A DNA stretch of 63,809 nt, the filler included, from Thraustochytrium aureum (taxonomy: Eukaryota): NCBI GenBank assembly GCA_012862495.1. It is 6 parts of 5 records of this genome, joined end to end, with 100 filler letters (N's around TTAATTAATTAA, not from the genome) between each part and the next. Parts side by side here need not be neighbours in the genome. Positions count along the whole stretch, not along the records: positions 13,649 to 35,864 come from BLSG01000270.1; 5 more parts are not named here. One strand, written 5' to 3'. The stretch's first letter is position 1. Each line of letters starts with the position of its first letter. The position numbers and the translations under genes were made by a program. A model generated the notes under the pieces. The model had not been told where the DNA came from. It did not search any database and saw nothing but the letters and a program-made list of their open reading frames with translations. Below are positions 13,549 through 62,535 of the stretch, one piece after another.

Positions 13549-13648
13549 NNNNNNNNNNNNNNNNNNNNNNNNNNNNNNNNNNNNNNNNNNNNTTAATTAA
13601 TTAANNNNNNNNNNNNNNNNNNNNNNNNNNNNNNNNNNNNNNNNNNNN
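13549..13648. other. Artificial scaffold spacer
   Basis: 44 N + TTAATTAATTAA (13593-13604, stops in all six frames) + 44 N. Confidence 0.97.
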
Positions 13649-16600
13649 GGGGTTGGCAAAGAGTTGGTGGCGCGCGTTCGCAAGCCGCACACAAAGCGCT
13701 TGCTCAAGCTTGAGGTTAGACCTACTCCAATCTCTTCAGCGTCGAGTTGGTCTCGAGTGCCTTGCAGAACACAGCAGCCCCGGCATCGGAGATTTGATTC
13801 TTCCAGAGACTGTTGTTGGCGTTGTGTGTTGCGGATATCGAGTTGGAGGCAGAACATTGTGTTAGCGAGCGAGATGTGGAGGGCGGGTCGGCTTTGCAAG
13901 CAGCAGACTAGGACGGAGTGAGACACTGCGCTGCGGCGCCGTCCGTGAAACTTACTGGAGCTCGGTCAGTGTCGAGTTCTTCTCAAGCGCCTTGCCTAGC
14001 GCAGCAGCTCCTGCATCGGAGATTCCGTTCGAGACGAGACTGTTGTTGTTGGCATTGACAAATGAATGATTGGATGGATGGATGGATGGATGGATGACGT
14101 TTGGGTGTTTCATTCGTCAGCGAGCGCGCCAGCGAGAAAGAGAGGCGGGTGCGGCCGCTCGCACAGCAAATAGAATAGGGGTGGCGTTCGACACGGCGCG
14201 CTACCATCTCTGCAACGACTTACTCGAGCCAAGTCAGCGTCTTGTTGGTCTCGAGTGCCACGCCGAGAGCAGCAGCCCCTCCATCGGAGACTTCGTTGCC
14301 ACCGAGACTGTTGTTGTTGACGTTGATGGTGGATGACAGCAAAGCGTTGTTTCATGTCAGCGACCCAGCGAGAATGGGAGGTAGATTCGGCCGTACAAGC
14401 AGCGGACAATTGCGTATGTTACACCGCACCACGATGCACTTCCTGAAACGACTTACACCAACTTTATCAGCGTCTCGTTTGTCTCCAATGCCTTGCCGAG
14501 GGCGGCAGCCCCTGCAACGGCGATTTGGTTGTTGAAGAGACTGTTATTGTTGGCGTTGATGATCGATGGATAGACGGATGCCGGCAGTGCAATATTTTGT
14601 CAGCGAGCGAGCCAGCGTGCGAGCGAGCGGAGAGAGCGAACGCGCTGCGGCGCCATACCCAAAAATACGTACTGCAGCTCTGTCAGCGTCGAGTTGGTTT
14701 CGAGCGCCTTGCCCAGCGCAGCACCCGCTGCATCGGGGATTTCGTTGTTGTCAAGTCTGTGTGTGATGTTGGCGTTGGTGATGGATGGTAGCGCGGACGC
14801 ATGTTTGTCGCGCGTTGATTCGTTAGTGGGCAAAAGAGAAAAGCTGCTGCGCCGTCCTTGCAACGACTTACTCGAGACTCGTCAGCGTCGAGTTGGTCCT
14901 GATTGATCTGCCCAGTGCAACACCCCCTTCATCGGAGATTCGGTTGCGCTTCAGACTGTCGTAGATGGCGCGATGATTCGTTGACAGGCGGGTGACAGCA
15001 ACGTTGACTCGTTAGCAAGCGAGAACGAGGTGGAAGTTCGGCCGCTCTAGCAGCGCATGGCGGGGGAGGGAGGGAAGACAGAGCGCGTTCGTCCCGCCGC
15101 TCTGTGGCGCCATCCAGCAACGACTTACTCCAGCCAAGTCAGCGTCGAGTTGGTCGCGAGGGCCTTTCCTAGCGCAGCGGCGCCCGCATTTGAGATTTCG
15201 TTGTTGAAGACGCTATTGTTGTGTGGGGTGACGACGTTGTTTCATCAGCGAGCGAGCGGGAGGTGCGGACGTGAAAGCAGCTGATGGGGAGGAAGGAACT
15301 TACATGAGCCTAGTCAGCGTTGAGTTGGTTTCAAGTGCTTTGCCAAGCGCTGCAGCCCCTGCATCAGAGATTTTGTTGTTCCAAAGACTTTAGTTGCAAG
15401 TGAAAGGATGGATCGATGGATGACGGACGCGCGTTGTTTCGTTAGTGAGCGAGCGAGCAGCACACAAGGAGGACAGGGGCCAGGAGCGAGCGCGTTCGAC
15501 ACGTAGCCCTGCGCGCCAACCCTGAAACGACTTACTGGAGCTCAGTCAGCGTCGAGACACGTCCCGAGTGCCTTGCCCAGCGCAGCAGCCCCTGCGTCGG
15601 AGACGCTGTTGTTCTCAAGACTGTTGTTATTCGCGACGATGATGGATGGATGCAGCGCGGGTTCGTAAGCGATATTGCCACAGCTCGAGAGAGGGACAAG
15701 CGCGTGACGCGCCGCCCTCCGGCGCCATCCCTGCAAAGNNNNNNNNNNNNNNNNNNNNNNNNNNNNNNNNNNNNNNNNNNNNNNNNNNNNNNNNNNNNNN
15801 NNNNNNNNNNNNNNNNNNNNNNNNNNNNNNNNNNNNNNNNNNNNNNNNNNNNNNNNNNNNNNNNNNNNNNNNNNNNNNNNNNNNNNNNNNNNNNNNNNNN
15901 NNNNNNNNNNNNNNNNNNNNNNNNNNNNNNNNNNNNNNNNNNNNNNNNNNNNNNNNNNNNNNNNNNNNNNNNNNNNNNNNNNNNNNNNNNNNNNNNNNNN
16001 NNNNNNNNNNNNNNNNNNNNNNNNNNNNNNNNNNNNNNNNNNNNNNNNNNNNNNNNNNNNNNNNNNNNNNNNNNNNNNNNNNNNNNNNNNNNNNNNNNNN
16101 NNNNNNNNNNNNNNNNNNNNNNNNNNNNNNNNNNNNNNNNNNNNNNNNNNNNNNNNNNNNNNNNNNNNNNNNNNNNNNNNNNNNNNNNNNNNNNNNNNNN
16201 NNNNNNNNNNNNNNNNNNNNNCGCAGAGGCCCCTGGGCCGGAGATTCTGTTGTACTCGAGACTGTAGTTGTCGTTTACGGTGATGATGGATGGATGGGTG
16301 CATGTACGCATGACAACAGCGTGTTGTTTCGTTAGCCTGCGACGAAGGAAGCGAGGCTCGGTCGCTGTGCCAGCGAAGGGGGAGCGGGCGCGTTCGACAC
16401 ACGGCTCTGGGGCGCCTTATACTCATCTACTTACTGGAGCGCAGTCAGAGCCGAGTTGGACTCGAGCGCCTTGCCTAAGGCTGCAGCCCCTGCATCGGAG
16501 ACTTGATTGCCACAAATGCTGTTGTTGTTTGCGACGATTATGGATGGATGGGTACATGAACGGATTGCGGCAGCGCTGACGAGTGAGCGAACGAGCGAGA

Positions 16601-17538
16601 GAGCGGGAGGGATGTCTGGCCGTGCAAGCAGCATCAAATGAGAGAAAGGAACAATCGCGTCAACTGCTGCACGAAATCTGCAACGACTTACTGAAGCTCT
16701 GTAAGCGTCGAGTTGGTCTCGAGTGCCTTGCCCAGCGCAGCAGCCCCTGCGTCGGAGATTTGGTTGGGACCAAGGCTGTTGTTGTTGGCGTTGATGATTG
16801 CTTGATGGGGGGACGACAGCACGTTGGTTCGTAAGCGAGCGAGAAGGGGAGGCAAGGGCTCGACCGCAAAAGCAGTGTGAGGCGCAGAAAAGAACAAGCG
16901 CTTTCGACGCACTGCGCCGCGGCAACGACTTACGCCAGATAGGTCAGCGTCGAATTGTTTTCGAGCGCCGTGGCCAGTGCAGCAAGTCCTGCATCGGAGA
17001 CGCGGTTGATGGAAAGCCTGTTGTTGTTGTTGGTTGTGGTGGTCGTTTCGATGGATAACGACAGCACGGTGTGCTTTCGCTTGTTAGCGTAGTGAGCAAG
17101 GCAGCGAGATTCGGCCAAGCAAGCATCAGACGGTGTGGTGGCCGGGGCGAGTGCGTTTGACCCGCCACACTGCAGCCGCACTGCGGAGCCATTCCAAAAC
17201 AACAAACGTACCGGAGCGTCGCTAGAGCCGAGTTGGCCTCAAATGCCTTGCCCAGCGCAGCAGCCCCAGCATCGGAGATTTGGTTGTTGTCAAGACTGTT
17301 GTTGGTGGTGTTGATGATCGACGGATGGAGGAGTGCCGGAAGCGATTTGTTTGTTAGGACCGACCGAGCGTGAATCGGAATCAAGTTCGGGCGCTCAAAC
17401 AGCAGAAAGGCCAGGGGGTATGGACGAGCGCATTCGACGCGCTGCACCGCGAAGCTATTTCTGTCGCGACTTACTTGAGCCCAGATAGCGTAGAGTTGGT
17501 CTCGAGTGCCTTGCCCAGCGCAGCAGCCCCTGCGTCGG
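13649..17538 (-). repeat. Diverged tandem array of ~175-280 bp exon+intron units (at least 15 copies)
   Basis: Introns are 91-194 nt. They share a GTAAGTCG-type donor, a TCGAACGCGC-like internal motif, a CTAAC/CTGAC/CTTAC branch site, (ATCC)n tracts and a (CAA)n-CAG acceptor. Confidence 0.88.
13726..17538 (-). CDS. Multi-exon RI/NLRC3-type (28-aa) LRR protein, one LRR per 84-nt exon; partial at both ends
   Basis: Exons in 5'->3' order: >17538-17475 (partial), 17295-17212, 17017-16934, 16775-16692, 16518-16435, 16261-<16222 (partial), 15620-15536 (85 nt), 15387-15304, 15212-15129, 14955-14872, 14756-14673, 14540-14457, 14307-14224, 14039-13956, 13809-13726. All visible boundaries are AG/GT and all introns are phase 2. 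Consensus is xLxxNxISDAGAAALGKALETNSTLTxLx. Confidence 0.92.
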
Positions 17539-18441
17539 NNNNNNNNNNNNNNNNNNNNNNNNNNNNNNNNNNNNNNNNNNNNNNNNNNNNNNNNNNNNNN
17601 NNNNNNNNNNNNNNNNNNNNNNNNNNNNNNNNNNNNNNNNNNNNNNNNNNNNNNNNNNNNNNNNNNNNNNNNNNNNNNNNNNNNNNNNNNNNNNNNNNNN
17701 NNNNNNNNNNNNNNNNNNNNNNNNNNNNNNNNNNNNNNNNNNNNNNNNNNNNNNNNNNNNNNNNNNNNNNNNNNNNNNNNNNNNNNNNNNNNNNNNNNNN
17801 NNNNNNNNNNNNNNNNNNNNNNNNNNNNNNNNNNNNNNNNNNNNNNNNNNNNNNNNNNNNNNNNNNNNNNNNNNNNNNNNNNNNNNNNNNNNNNNNNNNN
17901 NNNNNNNNNNNNNNNNNNNNNNNNNNNNNNNNNNNNNNNNNNNNNNNNNNNNNNNNNNNNNNNNNNNNNNNNNNNNNNNNNNNNNNNNNNNNNNNNNNNN
18001 NNNNNNNNNNNNNNNNNNNNNNNNNNNNNNNNNNNNNNNNNNNNNNNNNNNNNNNNNNNNNNNNNNNNNNNNNNNNNNNNNNNNNNNNNNNNNNNNNNNN
18101 NNNNNNNNNNNNNNNNNNNNNNNNNNNNNNNNNNNNNNNNNNNNNNNNNNNNNNNNNNNNNNNNNNNNNNNNNNNNNNNNNNNNNNNNNNNNNNNNNNNN
18201 NNNNNNNNNNNNNNNNNNNNNNNNNNNNNNNNNNNNNNNNNNNNNNNNNNNNNNNNNNNNNNNNNNNNNNNNNNNNNNNNNNNNNNNNNNNNNNNNNNNN
18301 NNNNNNNNNNNNNNNNNNNNNNNNNNNNNNNNNNNNNNNNNNNNNNNNNNNNNNNNNNNNNNNNNNNNNNNNNNNNNNNNNNNNNNNNNNNNNNNNNNNN
18401 NNNNNNNNNNNNNNNNNNNNNNNNNNNNNNNNNNNNNNNTT

Positions 18442-19149
18442 TTGGATAGCGACGGCGTCGCGATGGAGGGCAAGTGCGCGCGGGAAGGCAAGTGCGACGA
18501 GAAGGAGCTCTGCAAAGGGTTCAGGGACGTCGCGGTGGTCGAGAACGAGAACAGACGGTCCAAGGCGATCTCGTTCTACCCCAAGGAGGTCGAGCAGGTC
18601 TGCAAAGGTGAGTGAGCGGCACACGGTGTGCGTCTGTGATGGCTTGACTCTGACTGGCTGGCTGGCTGCCGTGGGCGTGGCGGCGCAGACATTGCGGCCT
18701 ACTTCAGGGCCGAGAGTGGCGGCGCGGACCGGAAACGCGAGAAGGAGCTGGACGACGTCCTCGGCCCTGAGGCGCTGCGAGCGCTGCTGCGCAACGTCGA
18801 GGAAACCGGCGACGACAACCGCACGGTGTGGTTTTTCGAGTACAAGCTGATGAGTGCAGCGGAGATTGGTAGCCGCGGGGTCTTGGAGCCGTGCGGCTTG
18901 GTCCCGTTTGCAGAAAACGTCGACGGCGACATGCTCGCTGTTGGCGAGGCCGAGCATGACGGCGGCGTGTTCAACGTCTCGTCCGAGGGCGAGGTCGAGG
19001 GCGGCCGCGAGGCGAAAAGCCTTGCCGAGTACCTCGAGGCGTACCGTGACGACTTGCTGAGTAGCAAGCTGGAGTTTGTCGAGGACTGCGGCATGGTGGA
19101 GAAGACGCCCGCGGTCGGCTCGCCTGTCGGCGCTGGCAGCAAAAAGTAG
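18442..19149 (+). CDS. SMI1/KNR4 (SUKH)-like domain protein, 5'-partial, one intron (18608-18688)
   Basis: Splicing GTGAGT...GCAG (81 nt, CTGAC branch) joins ...EVEQVCK/DIAAYFR...VWFFEYKLMSAAEI...LVPFAENVDGDMLAV...AKSLAEYLEAYRDDL in frame. The latter segment has the SUKH pattern. Recognised by eye. Confidence 0.55.
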
Positions 19150-28564: not shown

Positions 28565-28878
28565 TTGGCAGACCCGCTTGCGCCGGCTCGCTCTAGCTAG
28601 GGCTGGCTGCGCTTGTTGCGTCGCTCGTCGCGCGAGCTGCGCGAGTTGGTGCCGGCCCGGGGCAGTCGGAAGGCTTGAGCTTTTCATGATGGATGTTGTT
28701 TTTTGAGTACCAGAGTGGTAGTAGTAGGTACAAGTACTCAGATCTATAGTTGCGAGTCCTACGGTTTCGCCTGCAGATCCACCGCCCCGTCCACGACATC
28801 GTCGATTCTGTCTCAAGCGCTCGCCGACTCTTGCCCAGCAGGCAGCAGCGCCTTGGTCTCCCATTGTAAAAAGCAGAG

Positions 28879-35864: not shown

Positions 35865-35964
35865 NNNNNNNNNNNNNNNNNNNNNNNNNNNNNNNNNNNN
35901 NNNNNNNNTTAATTAATTAANNNNNNNNNNNNNNNNNNNNNNNNNNNNNNNNNNNNNNNNNNNN
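35865..35964. other. Artificial scaffold spacer
   Basis: N44-TTAATTAATTAA-N44. Confidence 0.97.
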
Positions 35965-42896: not shown

Positions 42897-42996
42897 NNNN
42901 NNNNNNNNNNNNNNNNNNNNNNNNNNNNNNNNNNNNNNNNTTAATTAATTAANNNNNNNNNNNNNNNNNNNNNNNNNNNNNNNNNNNNNNNNNNNN
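42897..42996. other. Artificial scaffold spacer
   Basis: N44-TTAATTAATTAA-N44. Confidence 0.97.
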
Positions 42997-57581: not shown

Positions 57582-57681
57582 NNNNNNNNNNNNNNNNNNN
57601 NNNNNNNNNNNNNNNNNNNNNNNNNTTAATTAATTAANNNNNNNNNNNNNNNNNNNNNNNNNNNNNNNNNNNNNNNNNNNN
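57582..57681. other. Artificial scaffold spacer
   Basis: N44-TTAATTAATTAA-N44. Confidence 0.97.
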
Positions 57682-62435: not shown

Positions 62436-62535
62436 NNNNNNNNNNNNNNNNNNNNNNNNNNNNNNNNNNNNNNNNNNNNTTAATTAATTAANNNNNNNNN
62501 NNNNNNNNNNNNNNNNNNNNNNNNNNNNNNNNNNN
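62436..62535. other. Artificial scaffold spacer
   Basis: N44-TTAATTAATTAA-N44. Confidence 0.97.

Follow-up and report, generated by a model that had tools for sequence, protein, structure and literature searches.

We analyzed a leucine-rich repeat (LRR) gene in a 63,809-nucleotide stretch of Thraustochytrium aureum DNA (assembly GCA_012862495.1), hereafter called the window. The gene lies on the minus strand and consists, from 13722 to at least 17538, of 15 copies of one 84-nt exon, each of which encodes one 28-residue LRR of the ribonuclease-inhibitor type (RI type). Our reading, a tentative one, is that selection for new contacts made five predicted concave-face residues per repeat diverge, whereas the remainder of the repeat was kept constant. 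Diversifying selection is the likeliest reading of the data rather than a demonstrated one. An earlier note on this DNA had proposed diversifying selection on an LRR binding surface at 13726..17295. The array that it described is real, but runs on past 17295, lies on the minus strand and has two exons cut by runs of N (N gaps). The proposal itself is upheld by standard site models and by the mapping of the variable positions to strand and loop, but it is not robust to variation of the synonymous rate.

Repeat pattern and variability

Repeat positions were numbered L1-x2-x3-L4-x5-L6-x7-x8-N9-x10-I11-S12-D13-A14-G15-A16-A17-A18-L19-G20-K21-A22-L23-E24-T25-N26-S27-T28, and all 15 copies fit this pattern with a period of 28 and Ile or Val at position 11. 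The array thus shows both marks of the RI type, a 28-residue period and the motif LxxLxLxxNxL followed by a helix-forming segment. Leu1, Leu4, Asn9 and Asn26 are invariant. Shannon entropy is highest at position 7 (3.09 bits), followed by positions 3 (2.95), 5 (2.69), 8 (2.56) and 10 (2.30), and is at most 1.51 bits at the other 23 positions, in agreement with the earlier claim that variability is concentrated on the x positions. Four of the five most variable positions are among the five x of LxxLxLxxN (hypergeometric chance ~0.001). The note had also reported that the residue pair within L-x-x-N differs in almost every repeat, and its listed pairs were recovered in 14 of 14 cases, in order. 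A similar statement about the pair within L-x-x-L holds for the second x, with nine residue types in 14 repeats, but not for the first, which is mostly Thr (10 of 14).

Among the 12 complete repeats, pairwise amino acid identity averages 0.648 over the whole repeat, 0.738 over the scaffold and 0.129 over positions 3, 7, 8, and 10. When all pairs were compared by the Nei-Gojobori method, the 23 scaffold codons showed a proportion of nonsynonymous differences (pN) of 0.146 and of synonymous differences (pS) of 0.442, with a dN/dS ratio (omega) of ~0.24; the helix segment is therefore conserved at the protein level despite synonymous change, as had been noted. At codons 3, 7, 8, and 10, pN was 0.604 and pS 0.380. 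Rate heterogeneity among codons goes far beyond chance, with a log-likelihood (lnL) of -820.87 for model M0 vs -795.05 for M1a.

The five variable positions are filtered and not free, since their residue composition is skewed. Of 70 codons at these positions, 31 encode charged residues or His (14.7 expected from intron base composition), 7 encode aliphatic residues or Cys (21.5 expected), 1 encodes Pro (8.6) and 4 encode Trp (0.8). Filtered sites that change at least as fast as silent sites argue for some positive pressure.

A separate observation concerns exon codons 14-22, where the silent sites of the helix core (GCT GCT at Ala16-17, GGC at Gly20) are far more conserved than those of the Leu codons, the genome being rich in G+C. 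Such conservation could stem from codon preference, from gene conversion, or from a signal for splicing that these very short exons carry.

Codon site models

Site models were fitted with all branch lengths optimized, using our own GY94-type code and not PAML. Since trees of the units are star-like and poorly supported, five topologies were used. With F3x4 codon frequencies and the tree built from the exon plus both introns, the comparison of M1a with M2a gave a likelihood-ratio test statistic (LRT) of 11.4 (p 0.0033), with an omega2 of 2.31 for 15% of sites. The LRT was 23.5 on the star tree, 18.0 on the exon-only tree, 13.2 on the tree of exon plus downstream intron and 11.6 on that of exon plus upstream intron, and omega2 lay between 2.3 and 3.1 on all five topologies. 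On each of them, the M1a/M2a posterior exceeded 0.95 at positions 3, 7, 8, and 10 only. The comparison of M7 with M8, which the earlier note had suggested, was likewise positive (LRT 22.5, p 1.3e-5, eight beta classes; M8a/M8, 11.5), and dN/dS at or below 1 was not found with the models in their standard form. In M1a/M2a and M7/M8, positions 3, 7, 8, and 10 were the only ones with a posterior above 0.99, at an omega of ~2.3. Over eight settings of tree and codon frequencies, omega at these four positions ranged from 1.8 to 4.1, and P was below 0.05 in seven.

None of 32 simulations under the fitted M1a model reached an LRT of 5.99, and their maximum was 3.41 vs 10.96 for the data under the same scheme. 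The variable-site pN of 0.604 exceeds both the scaffold pS and the difference between aligned introns (0.381, a value biased downward by the optimized alignment); in a site bootstrap of 500 draws, the fraction in which variable-site pN did not exceed scaffold pS was 0.002. A pooled fixed-effects test of the four codons with a gene-wide silent rate gave a beta of 2.12 and an LRT of 16.2.

Family and fold

Five single exons matched the Pfam family LRR_6 (PF13516) at 13.3-18.8 bits each, the whole-protein gathering threshold being 23.4 bits; the spliced protein would pass this threshold if its 15 repeat scores sum as they do in relatives. Single exons also matched solved RI-type chains, namely an RI-like axonemal protein (9y6s_4e, 2.2e-7), MOP84A (6.7e-6) and NOD2 (5irm, 6.8e-6), besides DRC5, LRRC34, tropomodulin and, weakly, RI itself (1dfj, E 0.34).

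As a structural proxy we used P0002, a relative of 109 residues with 67% identity across one repeat. Its model, of modest confidence (predicted local distance difference test, pLDDT, 68.7), places strands at x3-L4-x5 and helices at D13-E24 and superposes on the NOD2 LRR at 1.9 Å over 88 columns; further fold matches were RI (1a4y), CARMIL, tropomodulin and NLRP1. Positions 3 and 5 would thus be strand residues alternating with buried leucines, and positions 7, 8, and 10 would lie in the strand-to-helix loop and not in the helix. The concave face of an LRR solenoid is lined by its strands. Both homology and the proxy model support the predicted placing of the variable positions on the strand and loop side; in the model, they would not fall on the convex helix.

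Exon-intron units and their splicing

Twelve of the 15 exon copies are exactly 84 nt long with AG and GT at their borders. A DNA profile built from the copies recovered all 15 in an nhmmer search of the window, with E values from 2.9e-24 to 1.8e-05, the weakest being a truncated copy, and found no strong-score copies elsewhere in the window or on its plus strand. The 13 fully sequenced introns are 91-194 nt long, have GT..AG ends and are mutually homologous, their mean pairwise difference in a MAFFT alignment being 0.381 vs 0.555-0.586 in five shuffled controls. Exon and intron were thus duplicated together as one unit. The codon of position 5, which lies inside the beta strand, is interrupted by every intron after its second base (phase 2), so any number of units keeps the reading frame.

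Most introns start with GTAAGTCGTTGC and have an A/C-rich end, AACAACAACAG, without a pyrimidine tract. Runs of the CATCCATCCA type occur near their 3' ends, and one of these has grown into a (TGGA)6.5 microsatellite at 14071-14096.

Two public sequencing runs were compared with the locus: X1, which is DNA, and X2, whose library type is not on record. X1 contains the locus at 99% identity or more in eight listed pieces. A 208-nt contig from X2 matches 14937-14872, then 14756-14673, then 14540-14483 with 0 mismatches, and omits 14757-14871 and 14541-14672, whose minus-strand GT..AG ends (CT..AC on the plus strand) are those of two predicted introns exactly. Such a joined contig is what spliced mRNA gives, the alternative being a processed DNA copy; X2 is only guessed to be RNA.

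The window copy of one exon, E07, is 85 nt long and frameshifted. Base 15560 is absent from an X1 contig (depth 6.3, one contig), and without it E07 is 84 nt long and open, with Val replacing the otherwise invariant Asn26. Either an error of assembly or a difference between strains thus accounts for the frameshift in the window.

At a likeness of at least 85%, 176 contigs from X1 and 91 from X2 aligned to the stretch, mostly on exon cores. Among those from X1, 12 were at least 99% identical, 27 were 95-99%, 72 were 90-95% and 65 were below 90%; 20 of the 176 reached a likeness of at least 98%. The many contigs of 85-95% on exon cores indicate that the organism holds many paralogous exons of this type. 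The family of such LRR exons is large, and its members taken together would be well expressed if X2 is RNA. Over window positions 13700-15738, hundreds of X1 and X2 contigs of 85-95% identity end near exon ends, and X2 31-mers are very deep on 13736-13765.

Selection and its alternatives

A number of results weigh against positive selection at the variable positions. The standard result depends on the assumption of one synonymous rate common to all codons, and silent rates are uneven (1.0-5.6 for Leu codons, 0.2-1.2 for Ala/Gly codons). When the four codons were given a silent rate of their own, alpha was 1.15, beta 2.12 and omega 1.83 (LRT 1.27, p 0.26). When they shared a silent rate with codons 2, 4, 6, and 9, a partition chosen post hoc after the per-site values had been seen, alpha was 2.30, beta 2.10 and omega 0.92 (p 0.77). 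Simulations with neutral variable sites and a local rate gave an LRT of at least 5.99 in 29 of 41 runs and reached the observed 10.96 in 20 of 41 (median omega2 2.5); the standard M1a/M2a test cannot reject this null model. With F1x4 codon frequencies, the M1a/M2a LRT was 5.68 (p 0.058); it was 8.16 with Fequal (p 0.017) and 25.9 with F61. Tested one by one with fixed-effects likelihood (FEL), none of the four sites reached significance (p 0.06-0.33). The variable sites, at 0.604, stand at ~85% of the saturation level of 0.714, and the intron benchmark is an underestimate. The sequences compared are paralogous repeats within one gene, so the result speaks of divergence after duplication at or above the neutral rate and not of an ongoing arms race. 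Between X1 and the window, ~2.4 kb could be compared as a strain comparison, with nine substitutions; only four of the differences are exonic, two of them silent, one an Ile/Val difference at position 8 and one in the scaffold. To the same side belong the use of our own code for the site models, the placing of positions through P0002 and not through a fold of the spliced protein itself, the guessed nature of X2, and the frameshift with its premature stop in the window copy of E07. More generally, an M7/M8-type test on short internal repeats gives omega above 1 for neutral variable sites if silent rates differ along the exon, and similar claims of selection elsewhere may need a control for uneven silent rates.

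Relaxed constraint without positive selection is possible, if somewhat doubtful. Under it, exposed strand and loop positions would drift within a filter against proline and aliphatic residues and would have been near-randomized since duplication, the omega above 1 being an artefact of uneven synonymous rates. The omega obtained with the local synonymous rate, the neutral simulations that match the observed LRT, the F1x4 result and the nearness to saturation all agree with it, and LRR consensus sequences generally have variable x positions. It accounts less well for point estimates of omega above 1 in eight of eight settings with a common synonymous rate, and for a variable-site pN above scaffold pS and intron distance; moreover, the residue filter should push the neutral rate below the silent rate and not to or above it. 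Gene conversion that spared the surface codons would also mimic the signal of selection. Concerted evolution of this kind, in which old units are homogenized by gene conversion or unequal exchange, the overwriting of repeat-specific surface residues is purged and the variable sites are only older, appears unlikely. The silent sites of codons 2, 4, 6, and 9 are diverged ~4x as much as the core (alpha 3.02 vs 0.77), the copies E01, E04, and E07 have in common a 40-nt core without a single difference, silent sites included, and the star-like, poorly supported unit trees point the same way, as does the concerted evolution with hypervariable sites documented for fungal NLR (nucleotide-binding LRR-type receptor) repeats in the excerpted text of PMC4986451. 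However, core Leu codons are fast as well (L19 4.4, L23 3.5), so that the effect may follow codon type and not position, physical distance is not linked to similarity (Spearman p = 0.16-1.0), and the introns are 38% diverged, so any homogenization was not recent. A recombination test of the four-gamete/pairwise homoplasy index (PHI) type gave no signal (P 0.42-0.78), with only 14 usable sites. A Sawyer-type run-length test for gene conversion came out 'significant' and was rejected, being confounded by the conserved exon core. It is very improbable that the array is a decaying pseudogene whose variability is mutational decay. E07 in the window sequence and the unseen 5' end of the gene would fit such decay, but the extra base of E07 is absent from the DNA run X1, 13 other exon frames are open, the scaffold retains its low omega, and a contig matching the locus has two introns exactly removed.

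In the reading that we prefer, diversifying selection acting on a gene that would be expressed, the array grew by tandem duplication of the exon-intron unit, as the homologous introns and the star-like unit tree show. With same-phase introns in the position-5 codon, two bases before and one after, gain or loss of units keeps the frame. The scaffold, made up of the leucines, Asn9, the Ala/Gly-rich helix SDAGAAALGKALE and the TNSTL turn, is kept by purifying selection (omega ~0.24), and positions 3, 5, 7, 8, and 10, rich in charged residues and Trp and poor in aliphatic residues and Pro, have changed as fast as synonymous sites or faster. In this way, every turn of the predicted horseshoe would receive surface residues of its own, yielding a non-repetitive face with a putative binding role. 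As is ribonuclease inhibitor, the protein is probably a binder made of LRRs alone, given that the missing 5' end of the gene shares a 901-nt gap with the 5' end of its neighbor. A wider proposal, which we consider improbable, is that the gene belongs to a large, expressed family of exon-modular, RI-type, LRR-only proteins, which forms an immune-like recognition repertoire in this unicellular, intron-poor host, with face codons under diversifying selection, a surface reshuffled by unequal exchange or exon skipping, and no NACHT or kinase signaling domain.

The locus and its surroundings

The window is eukaryotic nuclear DNA of ~60% G+C with many N gaps, and its other genes are mostly long uninterrupted open reading frames (ORFs), among them those for Nipped-B, a P4-ATPase, CSN7, Rad17, kinases and EF-hand proteins. 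The features of the LRR gene are collected in Table 1. Judged from the spacing, the N gap at 15739-16221 likely hides one further exon.

Table 1. Exon copies and introns of the LRR gene (window positions).
Feature	Position	Strand	Remarks
E01	17475..17538	-	3' part only; 5' part in N gap 17539-18439; nhmmer E 2.4e-17
E02	17212..17295	-	84 nt; AG and GT borders
E03	16934..17017	-	84 nt
E04	16692..16775	-	84 nt; Pfam LRR_6 14.8 bits; matches solved RI-type LRR chains
E05	16435..16518	-	84 nt
E06	16222..16261	-	5' part only; remainder in N gap 15739-16221; weakest nhmmer match
E07	15536..15620	-	85 nt in window, frameshift; 84 nt and open without base 15560
E08	15304..15387	-	84 nt
E09	15129..15212	-	84 nt
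E10	14872..14955	-	84 nt; 3' border confirmed by X2 joined contig
E11	14673..14756	-	84 nt; both borders confirmed by X2 joined contig
E12	14457..14540	-	84 nt; 5' border confirmed by X2 joined contig
E13	14224..14307	-	84 nt
E14	13956..14039	-	84 nt
E15	13722..13809	-	last exon; stop codon TAG at 13722-13724
Introns	13810..17474	-	13 fully sequenced, plus introns partly hidden in N gap 15739-16221

In E15, TAG occupies the place of the 5' splice site of the other units, GTAGGT vs GTAAGT (GAG TAG GT vs GA/GTAAGT with the border marked). At 13722-13727, E15 thus resembles a unit whose splice donor has mutated to a terminator. We take E15 as the terminal exon, since the next 77 nt show no significant similarity to the intron family (P = 0.29); the idea of an array visibly continuing past the contig edge was dropped on the same ground. 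Five identical 100-nt spacers (44 N, TTAATTAATTAA, 44 N) lie at 13549-13648, 35865-35964, 42897-42996, 57582-57681, and 62436-62535. They appear to be artificial joins between contigs, with a stop in each of the six frames, so that adjacency across them, including on the 3' side of the LRR gene, is not assured.

The 5' end of the gene falls inside the 901-nt N gap at 17539-18439, and a plus-strand neighbor begins within the same gap. Two gene 5' ends in one gap leave little space for another domain, provided that the size of the gap is right. This divergent neighbor (18440-19149, plus strand) shows a weak match to SMI1/KNR4 (SUKH), with an E value of 0.0008 that is below threshold. No NACHT or NB-ARC domain was found in 40 long window ORFs, the 5' end of the LRR gene itself lying in the gap, and no Roc/COR match was found among the window ORFs. 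A stray weak match to the exon profile at 28793-28857 on the minus strand (E 0.0022), near the 3' end of the P4-ATPase ORF, is probably due to chance.

Relatives in protein collections

One exon set in a 42-residue window reference was used as the query of a whole-library search, in which only residues 14-41, the exon, were matched. It found 3312 representative proteins at E <= 0.001, none of them more than 68% identical. LRR_6 was above threshold in all 27 nearest relatives examined; most of these have no extra domain, but NACHT is present in six, a kinase in one and RCC1 in one. A profile built on ten exon windows gave 60 matches, none above 73% identity save one short match with 21% coverage. 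Matches this distant imply that neither an orthologue nor a paralogue from this organism is in that protein collection. Among them are NLRC3-like and NLRC5-like proteins of corals and a diatom transcript. A protein search with the 42-residue reference gave two matches among 16 candidates, neither of them close, an exact DNA pattern of the exon core was found in 0 metagenome contigs, and a protein atlas search with the neighboring gene returned nothing above 0.84 and no usable taxon.

Unrelated arrays that are internally conserved also have their highest entropy at these places, namely at positions 3, 5, and 8 in P0003 (NACHT-LRR, 13 repeats) and at positions 3, 5, 7, and 8 in P0006 (six repeats). 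In the bacterial-looking P0001, variability is spread out across the repeat.

Comparison with known systems

A literature search found no paper that joins 84 bp LRR exons, positive selection and NLR. In systems of the lamprey variable lymphocyte receptor (VLR) type, the germline gene is incomplete, and LRR cassettes on its flanks serve as donors that are copied into it. Here, in contrast, all copies lie within one spliced gene in one orientation, and nothing in the window suggests somatic assembly. Ribonuclease inhibitor (RNH1) is an LRR-only protein of ~15-16 RI-type repeats; it forms a horseshoe and contacts its ligand through residues of the strands and of the strand-to-helix loops. The gene described here resembles it in having at least 15 RI-type repeats; the sequence match is weak, as given above, and the fold match comes via the P0002 model only. 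RI repeats alternate between 28 and 29 residues, with two repeats per 171-nt exon in RNH1, whereas those found here have 28 residues and occupy one 84-nt exon each, and no RNase partner is implied. The layout of two repeats per 171-nt exon is also described for NLRP genes in the excerpts of PMC6642158. This and the comparisons below follow excerpts of the papers cited.

In fungal NLRs, the WD40, ANK and TPR repeats are internally conserved, and a few hypervariable positions on the interaction surface test as positively selected (PMC4986451). The likeness to our array lies in repeats of one gene that are alike save at a few hypervariable surface positions. The fold differs, the fungal repeats have no per-repeat exons, and their internal identity is ~85% vs 65% here; their concerted evolution was shown with population data, whereas repeats of one gene were compared here.

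Tetrahymena has tens of thousands of LRR exons of exactly 90 bp with same-phase introns, for which unequal crossing-over is offered as the explanation (PMC6564038). Both are protist systems with a large family, equal-length exons, same-phase introns and many paralogous exon cores. Repeat length and LRR class differ, and an analysis of selection was not found in the Tetrahymena excerpts.

Vertebrate NOD/NLRC genes encode 28-residue RI-class repeats of the form LxxLxLxx(N/C)xL, one per exon (Hoss et al. 2019, PMC6642158). They share with the T. aureum gene an exon border at a constant place in the beta strand and frame-preserving exons, and NOD2 is among the best matches both in sequence and, via the P0002 model, in fold. 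NOD/NLRC genes carry a NACHT domain, whereas none was seen in the present gene, where the sequence gap could hardly accommodate one. The excerpts of PMC6642158 do not report mutually homologous introns, such as those found here, for NOD/NLRC.

Brown-algal ROCO genes (Ectocarpus, Saccharina) encode one 24-residue LRR per 72-nt exon and undergo exon shuffling (PMC3341825, PMC11378527). As in their type I LRR exons, one LRR per exon, equal exon lengths, the same codon split and tandem duplication are seen here. The brown-algal units differ in being 72 nt and 24 residues long and in accompanying a ROC-COR GTPase, whereas ours are RI-type units of 84 nt and 28 residues with no other domains seen. 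The ROCO genes are described as having splice variants and, within introns, exon copies that are inactive or inverted; neither was found here with the window profile or in the X1 and X2 contigs. In the brown algae, M2/M8 on exon alignments picked four concave-face sites; here, standard models likewise picked four sites, though the result is not robust to variation of the synonymous rate. The design of the T. aureum gene is thus already known from other organisms. If the variable face is indeed the product of selection, a further eukaryotic lineage would be seen to diversify a recognition surface on a constant LRR scaffold by means of one-repeat exons, which would support a recurrent route to binding diversity, shared with brown algae, ciliates and animal NLRs.

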